NCBI GenBank assembly: GCA_028715645.1
Contig: JAQURK010000001.1
Location: 17,806 to 81,805 of the forward strand
Source: Candidatus Omnitrophota bacterium
GTDB lineage: Bacteria > Omnitrophota > Gorgyraeia > JABMQH01
Direction of reading: 5' to 3'
DNA: 64,000 bases
The position numbers and the translations under genes were made by a program. The first letter of the stretch is position 1; the number at the start of each line of letters is the position of its first letter. Shown here piece after piece: positions 969 to 55,329 of this stretch. The notes beneath the pieces are model-generated. The model saw nothing but the letters and a program-made list of their open reading frames with translations. It was not told the origin of the DNA and searched no databases.

Positions 969-2942
969 TTATCCCTCCTCTTTTAAATTTGTAACCGCGC
1001 TTTTTAACAATCTGCAATAGAGGTCAAAACCCACGGCCTCTATGTAGCCGTGCTGCTCGGAACCAAGGAGGTTTCCGGCGCCCCTCAGCTGAAGGTCCTC
1101 CATGGCTATTTTAAAACCAGAACCCAGTTCTGTAAAATTCTTTATCGCAAGCAGCCGTTTTTCTATATCCTTCGTCAGGATGATATTATTCGGTATTAAA
1201 AAAAAGGCGTAGGCCTTTCGTTTGAATCTTCCTACGCGGCCCCTCAATTGATAAAGGTCGGCAAGTCCAAACATGTCCGCCCTGTTTACGATTATCGTAT
1301 TCGCGTTCGGTATGTCTATACCCGATTCTATGATGGCCGTCGATACCAGAACATCTATCCGGCCGTTTATGAAGCCGGCCATGGCGTTTTCAAGCATTTT
1401 CTCCGACATCTGTCCGTGGGCAATCTCAACGCGGGCCTCAGGCGCCAGGGACTTGATGTGGGCGGCTATTTTTTCTATTCCCAGTATGCGGTTGTGCAGA
1501 AAAAAAACCTGGCCCTTCCTTTCCAGCTCATTTCCTATGGCCTCCTTTATCAGTTTTTCGTCATATTCGCTGACATGCGTCTCGACAGGAAGTCTGTCCT
1601 GAGGAGGCGTGGCAATTATGGAAAGGTCCTTGGCGCCCATGAGAGACATGTATAAGGTCCTGGGTATCGGCGTGGCGGTTAGGGTAAGAACATCCACCAT
1701 CAGGCGCAGCCTTTTTAATTTTTCCTTGTGTCTTACTCCGAACCTCTGTTCCTCGTCGACAATCACGAGCCCCAGGTCCTTGAATTTTATGTCATCCGAA
1801 AGCAGCCTGTGGGTCCCTATCAGTATATCGACGCCGCCGTCCGAAAGGCCTTTTATGATTTCCTGCTGCTCTTTTTCCGTCCTGAACCTGCTAAGCATCC
1901 TTACCGTTACGGGATACCTGGAAAGCCGCAAGCTGAATGTATTATAATGCTGTTCCGCCAGGATCGTGGTCGGCACGAGAACCGCGGCTTGTTTATTATC
2001 CATTACCGCCTTAAACGCCGCCCTGAGGGCGACCTCTGTCTTGCCGTATCCCACATCGCCGCAGAGGAGCCTGTCCATGGGCCTTGAGGATTCCATGTCC
2101 TTTTTTACCTCTATGGTCGAGCGCCTCTGGTCCGGCGTCTCTTCATACGGAAAGGCCTCTTCAAGCTCCCGCTGCCAATCCGTGTCCTTTGAAAAACTAA
2201 AACCTGAAAGTGAGGCCCGTTTTGCCTGCAGCTCCAGAAGCTCGTATGCAAGCGTAAAAACGCCCTTCTTCGCCCTCTCTTTTACCTTCTGCCACAGGTT
2301 TGAGCCCAACTTATAAAGCCGCGGCGGCCTGCCCTCAAAGCCAATATATCTTTGAATAAGGTTGAGTTCGGTTGAAGGGACATACAGGATCTCCTTGTCC
2401 TGATATTCGATAACAAAATGGTCGAGGAAGGCCTTTCCCGTCTTAAGACGCTTTAAACCCCTGTACACGCCTATCCCGTGATCGACGTGGACCACAAGAT
2501 CGCCGGGTGAGATATCGACAAAATTATTTATGGGGATCTCTTCCGTAAATATGAGCGGCGCCCTTATCTTATGCGGCCTCAAGCGCGAGACGGGCAGGAT
2601 GATCGCGATCTGATGCTCCTGGGCATAATTTCCGGTCTGCGGGTCAAAGCCTCTTATCCTCTCGACGATGCTGCCGGAAAATTGTATCCTCACGGGCAGC
2701 TCGAAAGTGACAGGGAACACGTCAATCACTTCGCCCCTGCGGCTAAAGTCGCCTTCTTCGCACACCTGGACGGCATTCGTGTAGCCGAAGTCTATCAGCC
2801 CTTCGACAAACTTCATCACATTCACCGTCTCTTTCACATATATCTTTATACTCTCAAACATAATTGTTTCTCGTGACGGGGCAGCTCGACCGGCGGGCAG
2901 CCTTTCGGCTTGTTTTGCTGCGGCCTGCAATTGATATGTCAT
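969..2942 (-). CDS. mfd: Transcription-repair coupling factor Mfd, short form (about 650 aa)
   Basis: Has a CarD/RID-like segment (DLVVHVDHGIGVY...ILYVPSTELNLIQRY), helicase motif I (GDVGYGKTEVALRAA), motif II (DEEQRFGV) and motif VI (QLRGRVGR). The N-terminal approximately 130 aa (D1a) and the D3 and D7 domains of a 1150-aa Mfd are absent. The upstream spacer is only 200 bp. Confidence 0.75.
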   Translation of the reverse strand: MTYQLQAAAKQAERLPAGRAAPSRETIMFESIKIYVKETVNVMKFVEGLIDFGYTNAVQVCEEGDFSRRGEVIDVFPVTFELPVRIQFSGSIVERIRGFDPQTGNYAQEHQIAIILPVSRLRPHKIRAPLIFTEEIPINNFVDISPGDLVVHVDHGIGVYRGLKRLKTGKAFLDHFVIEYQDKEILYVPSTELNLIQRYIGFEGRPPRLYKLGSNLWQKVKERAKKGVFTLAYELLELQAKRASLSGFSFSKDTDWQRELEEAFPYEETPDQRRSTIEVKKDMESSRPMDRLLCGDVGYGKTEVALRAAFKAVMDNKQAAVLVPTTILAEQHYNTFSLRLSRYPVTVRMLSRFRTEKEQQEIIKGLSDGGVDILIGTHRLLSDDIKFKDLGLVIVDEEQRFGVRHKEKLKRLRLMVDVLTLTATPIPRTLYMSLMGAKDLSIIATPPQDRLPVETHVSEYDEKLIKEAIGNELERKGQVFFLHNRILGIEKIAAHIKSLAPEARVEIAHGQMSEKMLENAMAGFINGRIDVLVSTAIIESGIDIPNANTIIVNRADMFGLADLYQLRGRVGRFKRKAYAFFLIPNNIILTKDIEKRLLAIKNFTELGSGFKIAMEDLQLRGAGNLLGSEQHGYIEAVGFDLYCRLLKSAVTNLKEEG

Positions 2943-3148
2943 GTTATGTCATCCCGAATGTAGTATCTTTTTGGGTTATTCTTCGGGATTCATTCAATTG
3001 CTACGGCCGCAACGCAAAACATTACGCCTCAAGGCAGACCCGCCGGTAGCTGCCCCTTAGCTCACATTGAGAGAAATTTTTACGGTCAGCTAGTAAAGGG
3101 GTCCCCCGAGGGGTGGTGCCGAAGCGGGACGTGAAAATTTCTCCTTCA

Positions 3149-5979: not shown

Positions 5980-5985
5980 ATTTAT

Positions 5986-6100
5986 TAACTTAAAAGTAAA
6001 AACGAAAAAGTAAAAACCACAACTTAAAAGTTAAAACTTATAATTAAAACTTTTTACTTTTAACTTTTGGTTTTGCCGTTTTCCTTTTGACTTTTTACTT
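5986..6100. repeat. AT-rich spacer built from an 11-mer (AAAAGTAAAAA) in both orientations
   Basis: TTAAAAGTAAAAA at 5990-6002, AAAAAGTAAAAACC at 6007-6020, TTAAAAGTTAAAAC at 6027-6040, reverse-complement TTTTTACTTTTAA at 6052-6064, and TTTTTACTTAA at about 6085-6097. These create several possible hairpins between proA and nadD. Confidence 0.5.
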
Positions 6101-6102
6101 AA

Positions 6103-7389
6103 CTACTCGCGTACCTGCCCATTACCGTATATCAAATATTTATACGTTGTCAACTCTTCCAATCCTACGGGGCCCCGGGCATGCAACTTTTCTGTCGAGA
6201 TCCCTATTTCCGCGCCCATGCCGAATTGACCTCCGTCGGTAAAACGCGTGGACGCGTTCACGTATACGCAGGCGGAATCCACATTCTTTAAAAAATAATC
6301 GGCATTCTTTTGATTATCCGTAACTATCGCGTCTGAGTGCATGGAGCCATACTTTCTTATATGGGCAACGGCTTCATTCAGGTTTTCCACCACCTTAACG
6401 GACAAGATTAAATCCAAATACTCTGTGCCCCAGTCCTTTTCGGTAGCGGCCTTTATATCCTTTCCGCCGAAGGCAGGGCCGCCTATTGAGGAAATAACCG
6501 AGCGAGTCTTCTCACAGCCCCTGATCTCAACACCGGCATCCCTGAATTTTTTCAGCATGGAAGGCAGGAACCTTGACGCTATTGCCTTATGGACCAAGAG
6601 GGTCTCCATGGCATTACATACTCCGGGCCTCTGGACCTTGGCGTTAAAACATATTGATTCAGCCATGTTTAAATCAGCGTCCTCATCCACATAGGTATGG
6701 CATATCCCCTTATAATGCTTTATAACCGGGATCTTTGACCTTAAAGAAACGAAATTTATCAGCTCTTCTCCGCCCCTTGGCATGACAAGGTCTATATAAT
6801 CTTTTTCGGCAAGCAGGACTTCTATCGCCTTCCTGTCGGTTTCTTCGATCAGGATAATCGCCCTCTCGGGCAAACCGCATGATTTTCCGGCCTTGGATAG
6901 CGCGTTGTATATTGCCGTATTTGAATTTATGGCCTCACTGCCGCCCCTCAAAATAACCGCGTTTCCCGACTTAAGACATAATCCAACGCAGTCGCTTGTA
7001 ACATTCGGCCTTGATTCGTATATGATGAATATAACGCCGATCGGAACCCTGACCTTATCTATCTGGAGGCCATTAGGCCTTTTTACGGAAGATAACTTCT
7101 CGCCTACAGGGTCTTCAAGCCCGGCGATCGTCCTTAATGACCCGGCCATTTCCTTAATCCGCCTCTCATCGAGGCGCAGCCTGTCTGTCATGGCAGGAGA
7201 AAGGCCGTTTTCGCGGGCTGTTTTAAGGTCTTGCGCGTTTGCGGCAAGGATTTTTTTAGCGCCTGCCTCCAGGCCGTCCGCCATCGCCAGAAGACACTCG
7301 TTTTTCTTAGAGGTTTCAAACGCGGCCAATCCCACCGCCGCCTCCTTCGCTCTTGCCGCCAATTGAATAATCTCATCTTTCTTTACCAT
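6103..7389 (-). CDS. proA: Glutamate-5-semialdehyde dehydrogenase (gamma-glutamyl phosphate reductase)
   Basis: 428 aa, aldehyde dehydrogenase fold with typical ProA N- and C-terminal regions (VPIGVIFIIYESRPNVT...). Confidence 0.9.
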   Translation of the reverse strand: MVKKDEIIQLAARAKEAAVGLAAFETSKKNECLLAMADGLEAGAKKILAANAQDLKTARENGLSPAMTDRLRLDERRIKEMAGSLRTIAGLEDPVGEKLSSVKRPNGLQIDKVRVPIGVIFIIYESRPNVTSDCVGLCLKSGNAVILRGGSEAINSNTAIYNALSKAGKSCGLPERAIILIEETDRKAIEVLLAEKDYIDLVMPRGGEELINFVSLRSKIPVIKHYKGICHTYVDEDADLNMAESICFNAKVQRPGVCNAMETLLVHKAIASRFLPSMLKKFRDAGVEIRGCEKTRSVISSIGGPAFGGKDIKAATEKDWGTEYLDLILSVKVVENLNEAVAHIRKYGSMHSDAIVTDNQKNADYFLKNVDSACVYVNASTRFTDGGQFGMGAEIGISTEKLHARGPVGLEELTTYKYLIYGNGQVRE

Positions 7390-7397
7390 ATGATATT

Positions 7398-7426
7398 ATT
7401 ATATCAGCGCTACCTGCCCAAAACAA
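7398..7426 (-). promoter_or_regulatory. Candidate sigma70 promoter for proA, giving a nearly leaderless transcript
   Basis: Minus strand: TTGTTT (-35, 7426-7421), a 17-nt spacer, TATAAT (-10, 7403-7398), then the ATG 9 nt downstream of the -10. Confidence 0.4.
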
Positions 7427-7675
7427 GTATTTATTGCTCGGGGTATTGTTCGCGGCGCTATAATTTTTTCGCAGTGTGCTGCGGTTTACGGCTCGTTCGT
7501 ATGCAGAAATTCCCTCGTAAGAGTAGTATTAGGGCTTTTCTCGGTCAGTTTCTGCACTCACTCGCCGTAATTCCTTGCACACCTATTATGTAAATACCAG
7601 ATGAGGCGATAAAAATTCTCATGCGCCGCTCACAACACCCCTCGCAATATATACCTCTCTCTATGCAACTTGAGA

Positions 7676-7862
7676 GGGACAGCTACCAGGGGGCCTGCCT
7701 TGAGGCGTAAAGATTTTGCGAGCGAGCGTGGGAATTGAATGAAGTCCCGACATTTATACATATTATTACTTGCTTACTTGGTCGGGACGGGAAATCTTCT
7801 ACATATCAATTCCAGCGAGCCGCAAAATTAGCCGAAGGGCAGCCCCCTGGTCAAGCTGTCCC
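7676..7862. ncRNA. Candidate structured RNA element (unclassified); strand not determined
   Basis: A ~23-bp closing stem pairs GGGACAGCUACCAGGGGGCCUGCC (7676-7699) with GGCAGCCCCCUGGUCAAGCUGUCCC (7838-7862); all pairs are Watson-Crick. Inside it sit an 8-bp stem (GGAAUUGA / UCAAUUCC) and an 8-bp apical stem (GUCCCGAC / GUCGGGAC) with a 30-nt AU-rich loop. Confidence 0.35.
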
Positions 7863-7869
7863 GGCACGG

Positions 7870-7914
7870 GTTAATCTACTTTGTTAATCAGTGAGAGGCA
7901 GAGGAAGGTGGTGA
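7870..7914. repeat. Direct repeat copy A (att-like), a duplicate of the MFS gene's 3' end
   Basis: GTTAATCTACTTTGTTAATCAGtGaGAGGCAGAGGAAGGTGGTGA. It is 43/45 identical to 10886-10930, which is the stop-proximal end of the transporter gene. It is read in the same frame as a pseudo C-terminus. Confidence 0.7.
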
Positions 7915-7916
7915 GG

Positions 7917-7951
7917 ATAAAAAAATATGAAGCCACAGATTGTGGCTTCAT
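7917..7951 (-). terminator. Rho-independent terminator of the 896-aa protein gene
   Basis: Minus strand: perfect hairpin ATGAAGCCACA-atc-TGTGGCTTCAT followed by ATTTTTTTAT, directly downstream of the stop at 8011. Confidence 0.7.
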
Positions 7952-8010
7952 ATTATATGACAGGGTGTACCTAAATAGGACGTCTGTTAATACTAATAAC
8001 TCTACAAACT

Positions 8011-10701
8011 CTATTGGCCAACTTTTATCCTTACGCAATGTATGTCAGAAGTGTTGTGGTGAAAATCATCTTCCCGGAGACTCGACCAAATTATACAAAT
8101 TCTATTACCTTGAGGATTGATGGCAATTTTGGGTCCACTCGTAACGCCGCTACCCCCGAATGTATAACCAGTATTAACATACTTATAAACCGGTATAGGT
8201 ACTGAATCAAAAGTCAATCCGCCATCTTCAGAAAAATTAAAGTACATAACAGTGCTCAATAAGTTTATCGTATAGGTCCATCTCGGATCAAAAAAATCCC
8301 CTACATAAGTAACATAGATATTGCCACTATCAGCCGCAACTAAAGAGGACATGCGATAATATGCACGACTGTCACTATATCCAAAGGGATTCATTAGGCT
8401 ATCTATAATTCTGCCATAGTCATCACCTATCGCTAGACAAACGGTTTGCCATTTCCAATGTTCATAGGACTCAACAAAATGCTTTTTACTCCAAATGGTG
8501 TAGATTTCATTATTAGCGCCAATTGCGATATCTGGATCATAGTTATATCCGCCAGAATATTCGTAATATGTATCAACCACTTTTGGTGTTTCAAAGTTAA
8601 GGCCATAATCTTGTGACCTTACCAATCTGATGTCGGTAACATATTCGGGCGGCACGGGCCCCAACACGTCTACACCATATACAAATCTTCCGTCTTTGCT
8701 GCACTCAATGTTGGCCACTGCCACTGCGCTGACTGGCCGTTCAAATGTTAAACCACCATCTATTGATCTTGCACAGTCACCTGAGGCTGACACATATACT
8801 ATATTACCTGATTCTGATACGGCTAAATCTGGATACGTACCATAAGCTAATGCTGCTATTTTATCGCTGAAAGTAATCCCTCCATCAGTAGATTTAATAA
8901 AATACGCTGCATTACTACCACGCCATACAATATAGATGTTGCCACTACCATCTGTGCGAATCTTTGGGAAACTGCCTGTTTCAATAGCCTTCCTTAAAAC
9001 ATTCCATGTAATCCCTCCATCATTTGACTTATCAAAATAAATTTTGCCGTCCCTATTATTTTGCCAAACCGCATAAACTGTGCCTTCAAATATTGCTATA
9101 TCTGGCATTGTTTCAGCGGGATCATTTGTCACTTGAATATTTGGGCTTATATCAATGTTTGGTCTGAGTCGTTGGTAATAAATACGCCCACTCGCGTATC
9201 CGGAATTGCCTGCCGCATCTTTGGTCTCTACAGTAATTGTATTTTCTCCTTCTACAAAATCGCCAACGTAACAACTCCAGGTTGTAGTATCAGGATAACT
9301 TACGGGTCTTACATATAAAGATGGGGCTGTAACTGTAATCGGCGCATTGAGCTCTCTTGCCCCTCCTATAATTTGGCCATCTAAGCTGGTAGAATAATTT
9401 CCGACGGTAACAGTTGGTGGGGTTGTATCCAGGATTATGGTATCGCTAAAGACCTGCGACCAGTTACCGGCCCTGTCAGAGAATTTCACAAATACAGTTT
9501 TTTGGCTATCGCCGGTATATAAACCCCAACTTGCCGCTGTTGAATAAGGTCTGGACGTAGACCAATTTACGCCGTCATTTGAAAATTTCATATCCGCCAG
9601 GCCTGAGCCGCCTTGGTTATCTTGCGCGGCCAAATTTAATATAACTGATACTGAATTTGTGTATTGGGCGTCATTGTTTATTTTTATTGAGCCGGTAGGG
9701 GGCGTTACATCAGAAGATGCTATACTCCAGGTCCCTTTCAGCACATAGCCGCTATAGGCGTTCTGTTTATCGCGTGCAAATAGATACATGTTCTTTTGTC
9801 CTAAAAATGCCGCTTTATATGCAACATTCCACTTCATGGTAAGGGTAGTACCGCTTCTTGAAACGGTTGTTTTTGAGCAATCAAGCTTGCCCCGTGTCAT
9901 CTGGATGATATTGCTTGAACCAGGGGCATAGCCGCCTGTCCAGCCTACACCATCACTTGCGTATAATTTGTTCTCTGGCTGATTGTAGTATACAGCGAAG
10001 CCATTTGGAAAGGTTGCGGTGGTATTTACCAAAAATAGGGCATGGGCTATATCCTGGTAGCCGTTTTGGTCACTGTAGGTAGCGGTGAATTCAACTGCTT
10101 GCTCCGCAATGCTTGAGCCGCTTGAAGGGGTAATTGTGCCGACAGTGGGTGGTTGATTTAACATAATATTCCATGTCCCTTTTAGTATATAATCACTTTT
10201 AGCGCCCTGTTTATCGCGTGCAAATAGATACATGTTCTTTTGTCCTAAAAATGCCGCTTTATATGTAACATTCCACTTTATAGTAAGGGTGGCGCCGCTT
10301 CTAGAAATGGTCGTATTTAAGCAATTAAGCGAGCCTTGTGTATTGCTGATTATGTTGTTAGAACCGGGGGCAAACCCGCCTGTCCATGCTGTTCCATTGT
10401 CACTTCGTAGGTATAATTTGTTCGTTGGCTGATCATAGTATGCAAGGAAGCAGTTTGTATTGCTTGTGTAGGTGGTATTTACAAAAAATAGGGCATGCTG
10501 TATGTCCTGATAGCCGTTTTGGTCTATATAGGTAGTGGTAAATTCAACTGTTGTGTTAGCAATGCTTGAGCTATTAGAAGGCGTGATTGTGCCGACAGTG
10601 GGCGCGTAGTTCAAAGCCGCCGCATAGCAAATACCAGACAATCCCGCGTAAATACTAAAGCTAACAACAGCAAGCAAAATCTTAAATTTTAAGTTTTTCA
10701 T
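8011..10701 (-). CDS. Secreted multidomain protein: signal peptide, two tandem ~150-aa repeats, Ig-like middle region, C-terminal BNR/Asp-box beta-propeller
   Basis: N-terminal signal peptide. Repeats over about aa 33-184 and 185-333 share conserved blocks (PTVGTITPS, YKAAFLGQKNMYLFARDKQ). The C-terminal half has four Asp-box motifs (SNDGGITW, STDGGITF, SIDGGLTF, SEDGGLTF). No sialidase RIP motif was seen. Confidence 0.8.
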   Translation of the reverse strand: MKNLKFKILLAVVSFSIYAGLSGICYAAALNYAPTVGTITPSNSSSIANTTVEFTTTYIDQNGYQDIQHALFFVNTTYTSNTNCFLAYYDQPTNKLYLRSDNGTAWTGGFAPGSNNIISNTQGSLNCLNTTISRSGATLTIKWNVTYKAAFLGQKNMYLFARDKQGAKSDYILKGTWNIMLNQPPTVGTITPSSGSSIAEQAVEFTATYSDQNGYQDIAHALFLVNTTATFPNGFAVYYNQPENKLYASDGVGWTGGYAPGSSNIIQMTRGKLDCSKTTVSRSGTTLTMKWNVAYKAAFLGQKNMYLFARDKQNAYSGYVLKGTWSIASSDVTPPTGSIKINNDAQYTNSVSVILNLAAQDNQGGSGLADMKFSNDGVNWSTSRPYSTAASWGLYTGDSQKTVFVKFSDRAGNWSQVFSDTIILDTTPPTVTVGNYSTSLDGQIIGGARELNAPITVTAPSLYVRPVSYPDTTTWSCYVGDFVEGENTITVETKDAAGNSGYASGRIYYQRLRPNIDISPNIQVTNDPAETMPDIAIFEGTVYAVWQNNRDGKIYFDKSNDGGITWNVLRKAIETGSFPKIRTDGSGNIYIVWRGSNAAYFIKSTDGGITFSDKIAALAYGTYPDLAVSESGNIVYVSASGDCARSIDGGLTFERPVSAVAVANIECSKDGRFVYGVDVLGPVPPEYVTDIRLVRSQDYGLNFETPKVVDTYYEYSGGYNYDPDIAIGANNEIYTIWSKKHFVESYEHWKWQTVCLAIGDDYGRIIDSLMNPFGYSDSRAYYRMSSLVAADSGNIYVTYVGDFFDPRWTYTINLLSTVMYFNFSEDGGLTFDSVPIPVYKYVNTGYTFGGSGVTSGPKIAINPQGNRICIIWSSLREDDFHHNTSDIHCVRIKVGQ

Positions 10702-10803
10702 TGTAGTTCTCCTTGTTTTTATATATCTTTTTAAACTAATTTATTACCAACACAAAAAAAATTAATCTGTACTCTTAAGTCTATCTCTAGCCTTCTGTAA
10801 GAG

Positions 10804-10831
10804 AGTATAGCACATAATTTGTATTTGTCAA
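10804..10831 (-). promoter_or_regulatory. Consensus sigma70 promoter for the 896-aa protein gene
   Basis: Minus strand: TTGACA (10831-10826), a 16-nt spacer, TATACT (10809-10804). AAGGAGAA sits 7 nt before the ATG at 10701. Confidence 0.5.
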
Positions 10832-10885
10832 GTAAATCTTTCTAACTTTTTTAAAGTATAACACCTGTGCGCTATTTACCCACTC

Positions 10886-10930
10886 GTTAATCTACTTTGT
10901 TAATCAGCGGGAGGCAGAGGAAGGTGGTGA
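10886..10930. repeat. Direct repeat copy B (att-like), lying at the 3' end of the MFS transporter CDS
   Basis: GTTAATCTACTTTGTTAATCAGcGgGAGGCAGAGGAAGGTGGTGA. It encodes the last residues ...TTFLCLPLINKVD* of ORF 10887..11900. Confidence 0.7.
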
Positions 10931-11900
10931 AGGCGGAGGCGATGATGAGGCCTTTTAGGCCGATTATTGGTAAAAGGTAGGCGCCCGAAAGATTGCTGGA
11001 CACAAGGGCAAGGTTGCTTATGCTGGCGAGGAACGCGAAAGAAGTGGCCTCAAGGCCATTCACCGTCTTTCGCGCCATTAGGTCCATTATCATAAGGAAG
11101 ATAAACATGCCCATGAGGTTATACAATATGTCGTAGAGAATGGCGGTTACCGGCGTATAATAAAGGTAGCTAATAGTTGTCACGGCGCCTAAAAAAACTG
11201 AAAAATAAAGCCACTTTTTAAGATTGATCCGCTGGCTGAATTTGTAATAAAGCAAAGAGCCCACTATTCCGAAAACAGTGCTTATGGTGCCGAGGGTCCC
11301 TATCCATACCTTCCCCCATTTAAACACATCCCTCTGTATGAAAAATAGCGGCGTGCCGAATGAAGGCGAATATTTGTAAAGAAATATAAATATACCGACG
11401 ATCAGTATTTTTTTATCGGCAAATATTTTTTTCAGGTCGGCAAAAAAAGAAGAGCTGATTTTCCGGCCCCCATCGTCTTCCCTGTAAAAATGAGCGATTA
11501 GCCCTACTATGACATAGACAGGCACAAGGCATAAAAAGGCCTCCCTGTACCCCCATCTTTGAGCGATATATCCGCCGCCTATGCCTGTCAGCATCACCGC
11601 CACTGAAATAGATATCCATTGGACGCTCTGTATCTTTCCGGTTGTCTTATTGCGCTTACCCTCCACGCACATGATCCCGTCGGTGGCGACGTCCCTGAAC
11701 GCGGCATTCGCCGAATTAAGGAGCATAAGCCCGATTAGAAGGGCGATAGGCAAAAAAGCAAGCCCAAGCACAAGGACTATAATTATATCCAGCGCCAGGG
11801 AAATAAAGATCCATATTTTTTTATTAAAATAGTTATCTATGACATAGCCGATCGCCGGTTTTATCAGCCACGCGAAGGTGGTAATACTGGAGATGACCAT
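10887..11900 (-). CDS. Multi-pass membrane transporter (MFS/BT1-like)
   Basis: About 10 hydrophobic segments, Gly-rich loops, transporter-like. The N-terminus may extend upstream through a non-ATG start, as there is no in-frame stop directly upstream. Confidence 0.6.
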   Translation of the reverse strand: MVISSITTFAWLIKPAIGYVIDNYFNKKIWIFISLALDIIIVLVLGLAFLPIALLIGLMLLNSANAAFRDVATDGIMCVEGKRNKTTGKIQSVQWISISVAVMLTGIGGGYIAQRWGYREAFLCLVPVYVIVGLIAHFYREDDGGRKISSSFFADLKKIFADKKILIVGIFIFLYKYSPSFGTPLFFIQRDVFKWGKVWIGTLGTISTVFGIVGSLLYYKFSQRINLKKWLYFSVFLGAVTTISYLYYTPVTAILYDILYNLMGMFIFLMIMDLMARKTVNGLEATSFAFLASISNLALVSSNLSGAYLLPIIGLKGLIIASAFTTFLCLPLINKVD

Positions 11901-12024
11901 GATCTTTTCGGGCGAGAAATTGAGGGTTTCCTTGAGGTAATAAAAAAGGCCTTGCGAGGGAAGGCCTTCGATGCCCTGTGTAAAATATACGACGCTGCTT
12001 AAGGCATAAATCCAGAACGATCTC

Positions 12025-12369
12025 TTATTCAGTCTTGGGCGCCTCCTGTTTTACCGGCGGGATAGCGATTGGCAAAGCGGCCTTCGTTTCAGCGCCGCCA
12101 ATGGCCTTTTTAACACGCTGGGTCTCCATGAGAGACCTGGATCTGTGAGTTGAAAGCGCGGCAAGGCTCAGGCAGGTAAGTAAAAAGATGACCGCGCTCA
12201 CAGAGGTCGCCTTCTGCAAAAATTTCGCGGCCGATGTCCCAAAAAATGTCTGGGTTGAGCTGATCCCGAAGGTATCGCTTAATCCCCCTCCCCTTCCGGC
12301 CTGAAGCAGTATGACAAGGATTAAAACCACAGAAACTATTACGTGAATTACAATAAGTAACGCGTACAT
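12025..12369 (-). CDS. secG: Preprotein translocase subunit SecG
   Basis: Two TM segments and the LLQAGRGGGLSDTFG motif typical of SecG. It lies downstream of tpiA, the classical position. Confidence 0.85.
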   Translation of the reverse strand: MYALLIVIHVIVSVVLILVILLQAGRGGGLSDTFGISSTQTFFGTSAAKFLQKATSVSAVIFLLTCLSLAALSTHRSRSLMETQRVKKAIGGAETKAALPIAIPPVKQEAPKTE

Positions 12370-14416: not shown

Positions 14417-15554
<1,138 letters not shown>

Positions 15555-15563
15555 ACTAACAAC

Positions 15564-16559
15564 TTATTTAGCTTCCCTCAATGTTTTTGCCGCCAATTCA
15601 GGCGGTGTTGGATTTATATAAAAACCTGTCCCCCATTCGAAACCCGCCACTCTGGTAATCCTTGGCATGATCTCGATGTGCCAGTGATAATCATCCCTTG
15701 CCAGATCATCGAGCGGAGTACTGTGCAGTATATAGTTATAAGCGGGATCATTAAGAAGTTTCTTGATCCTGGAAAGGGTGTCTTTGAATATGGACGCCAG
15801 ATCATTAATCCCCTCGACCTGGATTTGAGGAAAATCCGAGACGTGTTCTTTCGGAATTATCCAGGTCTCATAAGGGAACCTTGAAACAAACGGGGTAAAG
15901 GACAAAAAGCTCTTGTTCTCCGTAATCGTCAATTCCTTTTCCTGCAGCTCCTGCCTTATCATGTCGCAGTAAACGCATCTTTCCCGGTAACCGAAATATT
16001 TCTCGGCGCCCTCTATCTCGCCTACAACCCGCTTTGGCGCGAATGGGAGGGCGATGAGCTGTGAATGAGGGTGGTCGAGCGAGGCGCCGGCGGTAAAACC
16101 GTAATTCTTGAAGATCAGGATATACTTAAACCGCTTGTCTTTTCTAAGATCCAGGCTCCTGTCCCTGTATGCCCAAAGCATGTCCCTGATTTGAGATTCG
16201 TCCCTGTCCGCTATCTCAGACTCATGGTTTGGCGTATCTATGATAACCTCATGCGCCCCGACGCCGTTCATCAAGTCAAAAACGCCGATGCCGACCCTGT
16301 TCAAGTCGCCTTCTATCTGAAGGGCGGGGAATTTGTTTGGCACCACCCTGACATCCCATCCCGGGGTATTCTTTTCCCTTTTGTGCTTGCTATAGGCCAT
16401 GATCTCAGGCGGCGTCATCTTCTCATTGCCGTTGCAAAACGCGCAGACGCCGGCCTTCTTTGGCGAAGGCACGGACTTATAAAAGTCCGGGCCCTTTGGG
16501 CTGTCATTGTTTATTATGATCCATCTTCCCGTTATCGGGTCTCTTCTTAATTCAGGCAT
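15564..16559 (-). CDS. Galactose-1-phosphate uridylyltransferase-like HIT-family nucleotidyltransferase (paralog 1)
   Basis: MPELRRDPITGRWIII, CAFCNGNE...TPPE zinc site, and the HPH-type motif DHPHSQL typical of GalT. Confidence 0.7.
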   Translation of the reverse strand: MPELRRDPITGRWIIINNDSPKGPDFYKSVPSPKKAGVCAFCNGNEKMTPPEIMAYSKHKREKNTPGWDVRVVPNKFPALQIEGDLNRVGIGVFDLMNGVGAHEVIIDTPNHESEIADRDESQIRDMLWAYRDRSLDLRKDKRFKYILIFKNYGFTAGASLDHPHSQLIALPFAPKRVVGEIEGAEKYFGYRERCVYCDMIRQELQEKELTITENKSFLSFTPFVSRFPYETWIIPKEHVSDFPQIQVEGINDLASIFKDTLSRIKKLLNDPAYNYILHSTPLDDLARDDYHWHIEIMPRITRVAGFEWGTGFYINPTPPELAAKTLREAK

Positions 16560-51205: not shown

Positions 51206-52138
51206 TTAAAAATTTATACGCTCTTTTTCAATAACCATCGGCCTCTTTAAAACCTGGGTATGTATCGAGCCTACATATTCGCCGATTATCCCTATAAATA
51301 CCATTTGCATAGAAGCAAAAAAGAAAAAGCCGATAACTAACGGGGCGATCCCGAGAGAAAACCTGTTCCAGAATAAAAGTTTATATACAAGATATCCCAG
51401 GGCCACCAGGAAGCATAATAAAGCTGAAAAAAATCCCAGCATGGTAGCGAGACGAAGGGGTATCTTGGAATGGCTGGTGATACCCAGCATTGCGTAATCA
51501 TAAAGAATATAGAAATTATTCTTTGTAATTCCCCACTTGCGTTTGGGTTGTATATACGGTATTTCGGCGCGCTCAAAACCTATTTCACAGATGAGGCCGC
51601 GAAAATACGGCAGCGGATCATCGAGTTTGCGTATAATCTTAATTACCTCCTGATCGTACAAGCCGAATCCTGTGAAATTTTTGATAAGCTTGATGTCGGA
51701 TAGGCCGCCGATAAGGTTGTAATAGGCGTTCTTAAAAATATTCAGTATAGGGGATTCTTGACTTTGGATCCTCACACCCACTACAATCCTGTAACCTTCC
51801 TCCCATTTTTTTATGAAGTCTACTATCATCTCTGGGGGTTGTTGCATATCTGACACTATGCTTATAACAGCGTCTCCCTGGGCCTGTAACATCGCATAAA
51901 CAGGTGATCTCAGCTGGCCGAAATTTCTGGTATTTAATATCACCTTTATATTTCTATCCTGCCTTGCGATATCTCTTAATATTTCCTGAGTCCTGTCTCT
52001 GGAATCATTATCAATAAAGATATGTTCGTAACTATATCCCTTAAGATCCGAAAAAATATTCTTTATCCGGCTATAGATTTCCTGTATGTTGCCTTCTTCA
52101 TTATAACATTGCGTAACAACACTAATATGCTTCACCAT
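51206..52138 (-). CDS. GT2 polyprenyl-phosphate glycosyltransferase (GtrB/ArnC-like)
   Basis: ISVVTQCYNEEGNI...IFIDNDSRDRT and two C-terminal TM helices. Confidence 0.8.
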   Translation of the reverse strand: MVKHISVVTQCYNEEGNIQEIYSRIKNIFSDLKGYSYEHIFIDNDSRDRTQEILRDIARQDRNIKVILNTRNFGQLRSPVYAMLQAQGDAVISIVSDMQQPPEMIVDFIKKWEEGYRIVVGVRIQSQESPILNIFKNAYYNLIGGLSDIKLIKNFTGFGLYDQEVIKIIRKLDDPLPYFRGLICEIGFERAEIPYIQPKRKWGITKNNFYILYDYAMLGITSHSKIPLRLATMLGFFSALLCFLVALGYLVYKLLFWNRFSLGIAPLVIGFFFFASMQMVFIGIIGEYVGSIHTQVLKRPMVIEKERINF

Positions 52139-53118
52139 TTTCTCCTCTCAGCTTGTATTTCGCTTGTCTTCCCTTCTCCATTCTCATCGTCTTTTATGAA
52201 ATATTTTTTGCGTAACTCTTTTGCGTAGTTCAAGTAAAGATCTTCTTTAATGGCATTGACGTCTAGGGTATTTTTAATTTTTTTATAGTGACCAGATAAA
52301 TCGGCTATCGCCCTCTCATATGTAGTAAATTGGAACTTTCCTATTTCAGAAATAAGCCTTTTGTTGTCCCCCGAATACTCAACTCCGACTCCTGGATTTA
52401 ATACTCTTATTTCACATTTATGGTCGCTTACTTTATTAACCAGGCCAGCGATTGTCAGCAAATCAATCGATTCTGTCGGGGTGATATTAAAAATTTTTTC
52501 CTTCGTTTTATTGTTTACAAAGTATACAACTATCTTATAAAGGTCATTACTATATAAATAATCATAAATAACATTTTGATTGATGACTATAGGCATACCA
52601 AGTAGATTTTTCACTATTGAGTTAGATATAAATTTATAACGATAATTCTCGTCTTTCCCGAATATACCAAATATTCTAAAACAAATTAAATTTTCGCTGT
52701 TTGTGTCTTGAATATATTTTGAAATCAAGTATTTTGAATAACTATGGCTATCTTCGGGAATGTATTTGCCAAAATATTCTTCGGACATCTTTTTGTACCA
52801 ATGGCTCCTTGAATACTCTGAACCGCTGCCTAAATTTATCATTTTCATGGAAGGCGTCATATGTCTTTCTATATTAAAAAACATGCGTAAATTATTTTCA
52901 CATGTATTTACGGGGTAAGACGTACCATTTCTTGATGTTGTTGCACAATGTATAATAGTTTCAATATGGTTTTTTTTAAAATATTTGCCTACCTCATTGG
53001 GGTTTGTCAGATCTAGCTCATCTTTAGATGGAGATAATACTGAATATTTGTCTTTTAAAAATAACTCCACTAAATTGCGACCGACAAAACCTCCCGATCC
53101 AGTTATTAAAATACTCAT
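52132..53118 (-). CDS. NAD-dependent epimerase/dehydratase (SDR)
   Basis: MSILITGSGGFVGRNL and YLISKY catalytic motif. Confidence 0.7.
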   Translation of the reverse strand: MSILITGSGGFVGRNLVELFLKDKYSVLSPSKDELDLTNPNEVGKYFKKNHIETIIHCATTSRNGTSYPVNTCENNLRMFFNIERHMTPSMKMINLGSGSEYSRSHWYKKMSEEYFGKYIPEDSHSYSKYLISKYIQDTNSENLICFRIFGIFGKDENYRYKFISNSIVKNLLGMPIVINQNVIYDYLYSNDLYKIVVYFVNNKTKEKIFNITPTESIDLLTIAGLVNKVSDHKCEIRVLNPGVGVEYSGDNKRLISEIGKFQFTTYERAIADLSGHYKKIKNTLDVNAIKEDLYLNYAKELRKKYFIKDDENGEGKTSEIQAERRKW

Positions 53119-53138
53119 AAATACCTATACCTCTTTAG

Positions 53139-54179
53139 TTAAAACCAGTTAATTTTTTTCCAATCAGCAGGATACGCATCTGACCTATCTACTTGAGGCA
53201 AGATATTCTGGTAAAAGAAAGTGTCTCTATTCCCGCACTGACAACTATACTTATTATCATAAGAAAACCACTTCGTACCCAATCCACGTTTTACTATCGT
53301 TTCCAAATCCTCACTAAAAATATTACCGATTGTAATTGGAATCCAAGGACATGGTAACACATCGCCATACGCTGTAATAGAAAAATGTCTCTTCATGCAA
53401 AGACATCCAAATTGGTGACCACAATTTGGAGATAGATGTGTTGAAATATTGTATTTTCCTTGCAAAGATTGGATATATTCAATATCTTTTGAATCGCATA
53501 TTTCGTCCTTATATTCTTCAAATGCTCCCGTGGGCTTTGCATGAATAATGCTTGCATGCTCTCCAAATTGAGCAATATAATCCAATTGCTTAATTAATTC
53601 TCCGCTATTTATCAGGCTTTTAGTGGCGACAATGTTAATAATGACTCCCAGTCCATATTTATTACAATACTTCAAGGCTTCAATACATCTTTTCCATGAT
53701 CCTTTTACCCCCCTAAACATGTTGTGGTTATATTCAAGGCCATCAATACTTAAATGAATTCTGTCAATACCTATTTCCACCAACCATTTTATCTTCTCTT
53801 CACTTAATAACCATCCATTTGTATCCATACTAATAACAAATCTACTGGGGCCTATCGCATCAACGACATCCTTCAGATCCGGAAAAATTAAAGGTTCTCC
53901 TCCAGAAATACAAATACTTGCCAAACCCATTGCATCAGCTTGATCTGCAATTCGTTTAACGTCTGCGATAGATAAAAGCCTGCCATTTTTTTTCTTGAAT
54001 TTTTCAATAGCGCAATGCTTGCATTTAAAATTGCAATCATATTTATATTGTAGCTGAATTAAAGCAACGCATTCTTTATTTTTTATCTTTTCTGGGTGTT
54101 TAATTATTTTTTCATATGCCAATGACTTTTTTTCCTGCAATTTCACTCTGTTCTTTTTTTCTCTATCTGTCATTTCCAT
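53139..54179 (-). CDS. Radical SAM enzyme (SPASM/twitch-like)
   Basis: CNFKCKHC (CxxxCxxC). C-terminal Cys-rich region (CGHQFGCLC...CPW...CQCG). Confidence 0.8.
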   Translation of the reverse strand: MEMTDREKKNRVKLQEKKSLAYEKIIKHPEKIKNKECVALIQLQYKYDCNFKCKHCAIEKFKKKNGRLLSIADVKRIADQADAMGLASICISGGEPLIFPDLKDVVDAIGPSRFVISMDTNGWLLSEEKIKWLVEIGIDRIHLSIDGLEYNHNMFRGVKGSWKRCIEALKYCNKYGLGVIINIVATKSLINSGELIKQLDYIAQFGEHASIIHAKPTGAFEEYKDEICDSKDIEYIQSLQGKYNISTHLSPNCGHQFGCLCMKRHFSITAYGDVLPCPWIPITIGNIFSEDLETIVKRGLGTKWFSYDNKYSCQCGNRDTFFYQNILPQVDRSDAYPADWKKINWF

Positions 54180-54183
54180 TTTT

Positions 54184-55329
54184 CTATCCCCCTTTTATAA
54201 ACTCAATTTTATTTCCCTGCAGCACCGCAATATTTACACCAGCATTCATCTGCATCAGTGTTTTCAACACTTCACCTGGATAAAGTCCCGGCACCATGAC
54301 TATCACTAAATCTACTTTCCTTTCCTTCAAATACTCCGGAGCTACTATATTCAAATGTAAAATAGGAGTAACCCTTCCCTGCTTAAACTTTGCCGAGTCG
54401 ATTATATATTCAATATTTTTTAACTTGCTTAATGCTAACAATGCAAGCGTCCTATGGCCCGCACCCCAGACGGCTACTTTTTTATTTTGTGATTTGTAGT
54501 CACTAACAACCTGCTGTAAATTTTTAATAAGTTTTTCCACTTCACTAAAATCTCTGGAAATATCTAAAACTTGCCTCTTTTTCACTATGAGCGCGATATC
54601 ATTATCCTCATTAATTGTATAGCACTCCAATACCTCAAAGCCATTCATTTCAAAAGCATGGGTTAATGTCGTTTTAGTGAAATATGAAAGGTGGTCAGCG
54701 ACAAATTCATTAAAACATTTTGTTTTTAACAAATAATCCAAATTGGGAACACTTACAAACCCTGCGGCGGCGGCGGATGCATTGTTATATATCGTTCCGA
54801 TAATATGTCCGGGATCGGGCAAATGTTCCAGGTAATTTAATAAAACAAAGGCGCCAAATGGATGGCCTGGTATTTTATCCATGTCTCCAATATAACCTTT
54901 AATCATTTTTCTACCGGCGGATTTCCCAATCGCGACCGATTCAGACGAGGCCTCGATCCCAACTGCCTTTAAACCCGCCTCTTCCAAGACGTCCAGCATG
55001 TGGCCCTCGCCGCTGCCGACCTCTATAACCTTTTTTCCCTTTAACCCGAATTTATTAACAAACCCCTGTATTTGCGAAAGCCTGGCCATCCTTGTCTTAG
55101 GGGAGAACGACGCGGCAGTAATTACTTTTTTAAAATATTCTACAGGCCTGGTATTTATCTGAACTAGACCGCAGGCAGAACATTGGTATATGTTCAAGGT
55201 TATCCCTTTATCCTTTTTAAATTCATTTTTTTTCGGAAAATATTGGGCGGCCTTTGGCATTCCGTTTAATCGCAATAATGGGCGCGGAAACAAGCCGCGG
55301 CCGCATAAGCGGCATCTATTAGGATTCAT
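54184..55329 (-). CDS. SAM-dependent sugar C-methyltransferase (TylC3-like) with N-terminal zinc ribbon
   Basis: CRLCGRGL...CSACG zinc ribbon. VIEVGSGEGHMLD SAM motif. C-methyltransferase-type C-terminal domain. Confidence 0.8.
   Translation of the reverse strand: MNPNRCRLCGRGLFPRPLLRLNGMPKAAQYFPKKNEFKKDKGITLNIYQCSACGLVQINTRPVEYFKKVITAASFSPKTRMARLSQIQGFVNKFGLKGKKVIEVGSGEGHMLDVLEEAGLKAVGIEASSESVAIGKSAGRKMIKGYIGDMDKIPGHPFGAFVLLNYLEHLPDPGHIIGTIYNNASAAAAGFVSVPNLDYLLKTKCFNEFVADHLSYFTKTTLTHAFEMNGFEVLECYTINEDNDIALIVKKRQVLDISRDFSEVEKLIKNLQQVVSDYKSQNKKVAVWGAGHRTLALLALSKLKNIEYIIDSAKFKQGRVTPILHLNIVAPEYLKERKVDLVIVMVPGLYPGEVLKTLMQMNAGVNIAVLQGNKIEFIKGG

Follow-up and report, generated by a model that had tools for sequence, protein, structure and literature searches.

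A single-gene islet between two copies of a transporter gene 3' end in a Candidatus Omnitrophota genome

The 3' end of a protein-coding or tRNA gene is a place where phages and integrative and conjugative elements (ICEs) integrate, and identity blocks of attL and attR mark the event. Tn7 enters at attTn7 by glmS, with 5-bp duplications, terminal inverted repeats, and tns genes. The classic cis-mobilizable elements (CIMEs) are those of Streptococcus thermophilus, at the 3' end of fda. By definition, a CIME has flanking direct repeats of which one is the 3' end of a gene, carries no genes for integration or transfer, and is foreign in composition (PMC5704250). Homology-facilitated illegitimate recombination (HFIR) is another described process (PMC3240628), and has been proposed for the orphan 3' ends seen in arrays of Rhs, contact-dependent inhibition (CDI), and type VI secretion system (T6SS) effector-immunity genes (PMC5361080). 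Here, we examine a locus in a 64,000-nt stretch of a Candidatus Omnitrophota metagenome-assembled genome (contig JAQURK010000001.1, positions 17,806 to 81,805; hereafter the window), in which a 3-kb cassette with one gene lies between two copies of the 3' end of a folate/biopterin-family (BT1) major facilitator superfamily (MFS) transporter gene. The locus adds a case to a well-known kind of event, the arrival of a small genomic islet with a surface-protein gene, and nothing shows that the cassette is still mobile.

A finding of this kind is common, and by itself it reveals no new mechanism. What it offers is a clean, datable case of one gene being acquired in Omnitrophota. Nearly all knowledge of this phylum comes from metagenomes, and its mechanisms of gene flow are poorly characterized; a recent preprint counts about 1,900 variability loci without an explanation in 223 of its chromosomes (doi 10.64898/2026.06.07.730766). 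The scar left at the transporter gene is a testable handle on whether such islets still move.

The repeat, the cassette, and the empty site

The cassette is bounded by a 45-nt direct repeat with 2 mismatches, at 10886-10930 and 7870-7914, with a start-to-start spacing of 3016; in a longer form, the repeat is 50 nt (10881-10930 and 7865-7914) at 92% identity. An earlier note on this DNA had described one copy as the end of the transporter gene and the other as intergenic, and its coordinates are confirmed. Genes, repeat copies, promoters, and other expression signals in this part of the window are all on the minus strand. Copy A (10886-10930) is the functional BT1 end, made up of the last 42 coding nt, TAA, and 1 nt, and it encodes the last 14 residues of the transporter, ending in TTFLCLPLINKVD ahead of the stop. 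Copy B (7870-7914) is a displaced, non-coding BT1 pseudo-3'-end, which keeps the same frame (TTFLCLSLINKVD and a stop), yet lies outside any gene. A single codon accounts for the two mismatches, at its positions 1 and 3, with CCG (Pro) in copy A versus TCA (Ser) in copy B, and that codon sits between identical blocks of 22 and 20 nt; Pro is the residue that relatives have at this position. Both edges of the repeat are sharp, with similarity stopping there, and the distal edge is at once the BT1 stop codon and the base of a long hairpin, HP-A, described below. Copy B is still joined to the original downstream DNA, namely the hairpins, the proA promoter, and proA. When up to 3 mismatches are allowed, the window has exactly two occurrences of the 45-mer, and matches were found in 0 of 100 shuffles; neither half of it is found in IMG/VR. 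A dispersed genomic repeat, which the earlier note had raised as an observation that would undo its reading, is thereby rejected as the identity of the 45-mer.

Inside the repeats are 2,971 nt, about 280 of them non-coding, which hold a single open reading frame (ORF) and form one transcription unit in the order promoter, ribosome-binding site, ORF for an 896-aa secreted protein, and terminator. These are the signals that the earlier note had listed, and all are present. The promoter, TTGACA-16-TATACT with a TGn upstream of TATACT (10804-10831), agrees with the consensus at 11 of 12 positions. The ribosome-binding site AAGGAG (10709-10714), as read from the sequence, is 7 nt ahead of the ATG at 10701, which opens the cassette gene (8011-10701; MDD5448991.1). 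The intrinsic terminator (7917-7954) has a perfect 14-bp stem, a 3-nt loop, and a run of 7 T, and ends 2 nt before copy B. The single ORF is not a mobility gene, just as the earlier note had it, and neither pseudogene relics nor extra ORFs are found inside the repeats, nor inverted repeats at the cassette ends.

About 100 related loci were collected from species-representative genomes (GTDB) and JGI metagenomes, nearly all of them labeled Candidatus Omnitrophota. The gene order pgk-tpiA-secG-BT1 is conserved across them. No BT1 homolog was found between 80% and 100% identity, which puts a comparison at the level of strains out of reach. Among relatives with enough flanking DNA, the four closest all have an empty site, with BT1 followed directly by proA-nadD across gaps of about 40-150 nt: L033 (80% identity), L032 (77%), and L002 and L003 (both 75%). 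The earlier note had proposed to look for this arrangement and to compare the composition of the cassette with its flanks; the GC content at third codon positions (GC3) of the cassette gene is 0.372 versus 0.572 for BT1, 0.561 for proA, and 0.50-0.61 for all other genes in the first 33 kb. Because the sites are empty in relatives and the cassette GC3 is low, the cassette is a genuine insertion of foreign composition, and the junction that it occupies is variable. Compared with the empty sites, the window has in addition the cassette, a repeat copy, and two hairpin elements.

The window proteins MDD5448992.1 (MFS transporter) and MDD5448991.1 are identical to entries from the source Candidatus Omnitrophota genome, and an independent Logan assembly of run SRR22315506 matches the stretch from pgk through BT1, copy A, and the promoter to the start of the cassette gene at 100% identity. 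Exact-protein look-ups with BT1, secG, proA, the cassette protein, and a small ORF over copy B gave two short Logan contigs from that one run, and the contigs end where they meet the hairpins and the internal repeat within the cassette gene.

That internal repeat is a tandem duplication of about 450 nt (9722-10149 versus 10166-10602, 75-83% identical in DNA), which encodes two copies of a beta-sandwich domain of about 150 aa found Omnitrophota-wide. The cargo protein as a whole is laid out as a signal peptide, the two tandem beta-sandwich repeats, an Ig-like domain, and a C-terminal half with weak BNR/glycosylhydrolase-like matches in profile searches. Its confident structure model is of the N-terminal half, where residues from about 30 to 430 have a predicted local distance difference test (pLDDT) score above 90 and form tandem beta-sandwiches resembling titin and adhesin modules. 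The model and the signal peptide suggest a secreted, adhesin-like protein. NCBI names MDD5448991.1 a "sialidase family protein," a name not confirmed here. Among 5.8 billion proteins, no homolog other than itself exceeds about 52% identity; the best, at 45-52% over 17-60% of the length, are Omnitrophota surface proteins of large size in unrelated contexts, and many of these have SpvB or RHS-type domains. Because the homologs are distant and placed elsewhere, the cassette as a unit is a singleton in public data.

The neighborhood of the islet

On the minus strand, the genes run pgk, tpiA, secG (12369-12025), BT1 (stop at 10887), the 896-aa ORF, a 480-nt gap, proA, and nadD. BT1 (10887-12032; MDD5448992.1) is recognized by Pfam BT1 (6.8e-17) and TIGR00788 (7.6e-20), and proA (6103-7389), for gamma-glutamyl phosphate reductase, by its neighborhood and an Aldedh family match. 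Relative by relative, the identity of BT1 follows the values for pgk, proA, and nadD, so BT1 and its end are native; at the resolution of 75-80% identity, BT1 is concordant with its flanks and gives no mosaic signal. The BT1 start is peculiar in that ATG, GTG, and TTG are all absent at the conserved N-terminus and the first ATG is at 11900. A CTG at 12032 aligns with Met1 of the relatives, has AGGAGG 9 nt upstream, and overlaps the secG stop; judged by sequence, BT1 would either initiate at this CTG or start at ATG 11900 and go without about 44 residues. NCBI annotates a third start, giving 361 aa. A candidate terminator at 11969-11945 is a false positive, as it is inside the conserved N-terminal coding region of BT1.

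Downstream of BT1, the junction is a variable spot. In the closest clade, it has three states, these being proA directly, a DUF5674 gene pair, and the cassette with two hairpins of the window. The pair is a two-gene module of a DUF5674 gene and a 110-aa ORF between BT1 and proA in three loci at 78% identity (L104, 7092-7846; L105, 1748-2418; L106, 2329-2999), with no duplicate of the BT1 end beside it. Its position relative to the proA promoter differs, being on the downstream side in L104 and L106 but on the upstream side in L105, and this difference in placement implies independent insertions or local rearrangement. No remnants of the pair were found in the spacer of the window. Among more distant Omnitrophota, the next conserved gene after BT1 is MarC-like; the gap to it is up to 200 nt in about 42 of 61 loci, and about 19 have 0.2-5.2 kb extra. 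The extra genes between BT1 and marC are toxin-antitoxin-like pairs, pseudopilin clusters, large membrane proteins, and up to five tandem "TITTYYPSPYG" secreted-protein paralogs, all co-directional with BT1. Extra genes past BT1 are seen in L013, L036, L040, L047, L069, L075, L095, L100, and others, and the one in L013 encodes a protein that shares its N-terminal domain with the cassette protein. An apparent duplicate of the BT1 end in L006, L038, and L039 turned out to be a repeated terminator-like palindrome.

The earlier note was right to call copy B intergenic but missed what lies directly beyond it: the 480 nt on the proA side are two long hairpin elements and not plain spacer. The first, HP-A (7677-7863), is an imperfect hairpin of 187 nt with a covariance-model match at 7668-7874, and it adjoins the pseudo-stop of copy B at 0-1 nt. 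Its folding compared with shuffles gives z = -6.0 and -7.5 on the two strands. A second family copy with 82% identity to HP-A is at 2872-3057, between argS and the next gene, and in the alignment of the two, every one of the 51 predicted pairs is preserved, 7 by way of compensatory double changes. The covariance model finds a third, truncated copy at 12076-12228 of L104, directly after argS like the second copy of the window, and this 78%-identity relative is the single match among 36 related loci. No matching Rfam family was found for the HP-A hairpins, which could be a conserved structured RNA or an intergenic repeat resembling enterobacterial repetitive intergenic consensus (ERIC) sequences or miniature inverted-repeat transposable elements (MITEs). 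The second element, HP-B (approximately 7425-7656), is an imperfect hairpin of about 230 nt that is unrelated to HP-A (z = -7.5). It takes up the rest of the spacer and overlaps at its base with the -35 region of the proA promoter; no further copy of it was found.

The native proA promoter, TTGTTT-17-TGATATAAT (7398-7426), is conserved in relatives, where it reads cTTGTCA-17-TGATAcAAT (the TTGTCA-17-TGATACAAT type) upstream of proA in L033, L002, L003, and L104-L106. In L033, it begins 1 nt past the BT1 stop. The -10 box ends 6-8 nt ahead of the proA ATG in both the window and L033, and so short a distance suggests that the proA mRNA is leaderless in this clade. Neither tRNA, tmRNA, nor Rfam matches were found in the window, including a permissive scan of 7380-8020, so the insertion is not beside a tRNA, tmRNA, or known RNA gene.

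Long palindromes recur in other intergenic regions of the window, at 3071-3143, 15492-15567, and 5985-6102, the last of which, between nadD and proA, is AT-rich, 118 nt long, and nearly perfect. Palindromic sites of this sort are where the Logan contigs break. Housekeeping and polysaccharide-synthesis genes make up the other 56 ORFs of the window. From about 34000 to 64000, especially at 52135-54194, there is a cluster of glycosyltransferase, sugar-nucleotide, and radical-SAM genes of the lipopolysaccharide (LPS) or capsule type, with GC3 of 0.30-0.55 versus 0.50-0.61 for the core genes of the first half, which is typical of an exchangeable polysaccharide locus.

How the islet may have formed

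The explanation we favor, while holding it at somewhat less than even confidence, is a Campbell-type single crossover on the BT1 end. The ancestral state would have been a BT1-proA junction with no cassette. Incoming foreign DNA, presumably circular, would have carried one whole transcription unit and a segment matching the BT1 end, and one reciprocal crossover inside the last 45 nt of BT1 would have integrated it. The product would be a hybrid functional BT1 end (copy A), then the cassette, then the displaced pseudo-end (copy B) on the original downstream DNA. A restored gene end together with a displaced copy on the original downstream DNA has the topology of a single reciprocal crossover. 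The position of the two mismatches between identical blocks, together with the Pro of the relatives, fits a crossover in the 3' block, by which the Pro codon of the host would have been retained and the Ser codon would have come from the incoming copy. We infer the circular intermediate and the single crossover from what is directly observed, that is, the insertion, the duplication, the empty sites, the foreign cargo, and the native BT1 gene. The structure seen today looks like a fixed islet, whose sole predictable dynamic is precise loss via recombination between the repeats.

As the enzyme for such a crossover, a site-specific recombinase supplied in trans is a possible candidate, on the doubtful side; RecA acting on about 45 bp of homology could be another. 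The same footprint can arise without an integrase. The earlier note had proposed site-specific integration at the 3' end of a gene; the insertion and the gene-restoring duplicate stand, while the attachment-site footprint of an integrase gains no positive support.

Several observations weigh against the single crossover. About 45 bp is short for RecA-mediated integration. On the side of a dedicated enzyme, no recombinase or transposase is among the Pfam families listed for the other 56 ORFs of the window (the top 25 families in 2 of 3 batches), and none is recognizable beside BT1 in over 100 related loci, as read from the listed ORF starts and, for L104-L106 only, from Pfam labels. No duplicated BT1 3' end occurs in those more than 100 loci, and the collections searched yielded no further copy of the cassette, its protein, or the 45-mer. 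Conservation of the BT1 3' end is unremarkable in the DNA, its last 15 codons ranking 212th of 323 windows in nucleotide identity and 193rd of 323 at third positions across 68 relatives. The coincidence of the repeat edge with the stop codon and the base of HP-A is explained by other mechanisms as well. Finally, the right-hand junction, where the terminator meets copy B, is seen in this assembly alone.

The rival that survives best is HFIR, or 3'-end displacement, which we consider rather unlikely. Linear donor DNA would have come from a close relative already carrying the cassette right after its BT1 stop. Homologous recombination in or upstream of BT1 would have brought in one end, and the far end, past the terminator, would have joined illegitimately 45 nt before the recipient stop, stranding the last 45 nt of the recipient gene as the orphan copy B. 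Such a displaced remnant of the resident 3' end is indeed present between the terminator and the original downstream DNA, the 2 differences in 45 nt would be donor/recipient polymorphism, and the same logic has been proposed for the orphan 3' ends in T6SS and Rhs arrays (PMC5361080). The process requires no integrase, fitting that none is seen, and the BT1-downstream junction recurrently changes its gene content in Omnitrophota without recognizable mobility genes, with L013 even having a protein with the cassette-type N-terminal domain past BT1. However, the donor arrangement, BT1 followed by the cassette with no duplicate, was not found in GTDB species representatives, JGI metagenomes, or the set of 5.8 billion proteins, and the closest homologs of the cargo occupy other contexts. 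The donor cassette and the recipient HP-A must also begin at the same nucleotide past the stop, clear microhomology is not visible at the junction of terminator and copy B, and HFIR is rare where it has been measured (PMC5361080).

More improbable is template switching or break repair at HP-A, in which a nascent strand would stall at the hairpin base, copy a foreign cassette through its terminator, and re-prime on the original template 45 nt upstream, duplicating the segment. Long palindromes are replication barriers and recombination hot spots. The geometry is suggestive, in that the distal repeat edge is at the base of HP-A with a 0-1 nt spacer and the cassette ends 2 nt past a strong terminator hairpin and T-run, so that both switch points adjoin stable hairpins, and the hairpins fold far better than shuffles (z from -6 to -7.5). 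But the capture of about 3 kb of foreign DNA in this way is not an established bacterial mechanism, microhomology is not demonstrable as the donor flanks are lacking, and the order of hairpin first and cassette second is assumed. What looks like a coincidence with the hairpin base is, moreover, equally a coincidence with the stop codon.

Slimmer still is the prospect that the locus represents a minimal integrase-less mobile unit, one gene with a 45-nt target copy, cycling at the BT1 end within Omnitrophota populations, or else gene capture triggered by the adjacent long hairpins at their base. Cycling may proceed through a recombinase in trans or through the recombination of the host itself. 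Either reading, if true, would point to a route of gene acquisition specific to an uncultured, small-genome phylum, and would help to account for the marked variability of the junction past BT1.

A true CIME, or a decayed ICE, integrative and mobilizable element (IME), or prophage, ranks below these as a quite improbable origin. An element would have integrated site-specifically at the BT1 end and lost everything except its cargo and att sites, leaving a remnant that a related element could mobilize. The flanking direct repeats, one of them a gene 3' end, the lack of integration and transfer genes, and the foreign composition all agree with the definition (PMC5704250). Against it, only about 280 nt inside the repeats are non-coding, with no pseudogene relics, and a tidy promoter-to-terminator insert is unlike the expected product of random decay. 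Nor does any of more than 100 loci have a related element, a recognizable integrase, or an occupied att site at BT1, and the halves of the 45-mer are absent from IMG/VR. The suggestion of the earlier note that this is either a decayed island or a cis-mobilizable element is therefore not borne out, there being no relics, no related element, and no recombinase among the families listed.

An assembly artifact, by which two strains, one with BT1-cassette and one with BT1-hairpin-proA, were stitched through their shared 20-22-nt blocks, is very improbable: the window does come from a metagenome-assembled genome, its right-hand junction is outside the independent Logan contigs, and the copies differ at 2 positions as strain variants would, but a graph mis-join collapses shared sequence and does not add a second copy, the junction of TTTTTTTATCC with TCACCACC must occur in reads for the path to be built, and the left junction is independently matched at 100% identity.

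Comparison with known systems

Several families of mobile DNA were considered as the identity of the islet and rejected. As an integron cassette, it would have a repeat, GTTAATC, that departs from GTTRRRY and a 187-nt hairpin with no matching inverse core at its other base; it has its own promoter, while integron cassettes usually are ORFs that lack one, and no integrase family is among the Pfam families listed. An Xer/dif origin fails for want of an inverted-arm dif-like site, and Tn7 and casposon-like elements for want of terminal inverted repeats, their matching enzymes likewise being absent among the families listed. A transposon with a target-site duplication of 2-15 bp does not fit a duplication of 45-50 nt with no inverted repeats and no transposase family listed. 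What the locus shares with Tn7 is an insertion placed precisely relative to the stop codon of a conserved gene, whereas the 5-bp duplication, the terminal inverted repeats, and the tns genes are all absent here.

As in phage and ICE integration, an identity block of tens of bp includes the gene end, and the gene is intact afterwards. Of the marks of an integrase island, the empty site and the atypical composition are here, and a recombinase next to an att site is not seen, either inside the repeats or among the Pfam families listed. Unlike those elements, the islet lacks an integrase, an excisionase, and cargo on the scale of an element, and relatives gave no sign that its site is reused. The displacement events of Rhs, CDI, and T6SS arrays are alike in that incoming DNA after a conserved gene pushes the resident 3' end downstream with no dedicated recombinase. 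They differ in the target, which here is a housekeeping-type transporter and not a polymorphic toxin, and in the remnant, which here is 45 nt, nearly identical to the working copy, and not part of a remnant array.

The likeness to CIMEs goes further. Direct repeats flank the islet, one of them restoring the 3' end of the target gene, integrase and transfer genes are lacking, the cargo is foreign, and an empty site is known; structurally, then, there are repeats at both ends and a cargo gene between them. The differences begin with ancestry, as decay relics of a parent ICE or IME are missing here, close homologs of the cargo are lacking, and IMG/VR contains neither half of the 45-mer. They continue with the site, as relatives have no integrase-bearing element there with which an att site would be shared, and the cassette is seen once. 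The insert is, furthermore, one neat 3-kb transcription unit, and its repeats are only putative att sites. Because the locus shows neither descent from an ICE or IME nor a site that is used again, we do not class it as a CIME; its closest form is nonetheless a CIME-like islet at the 3' end of a gene.

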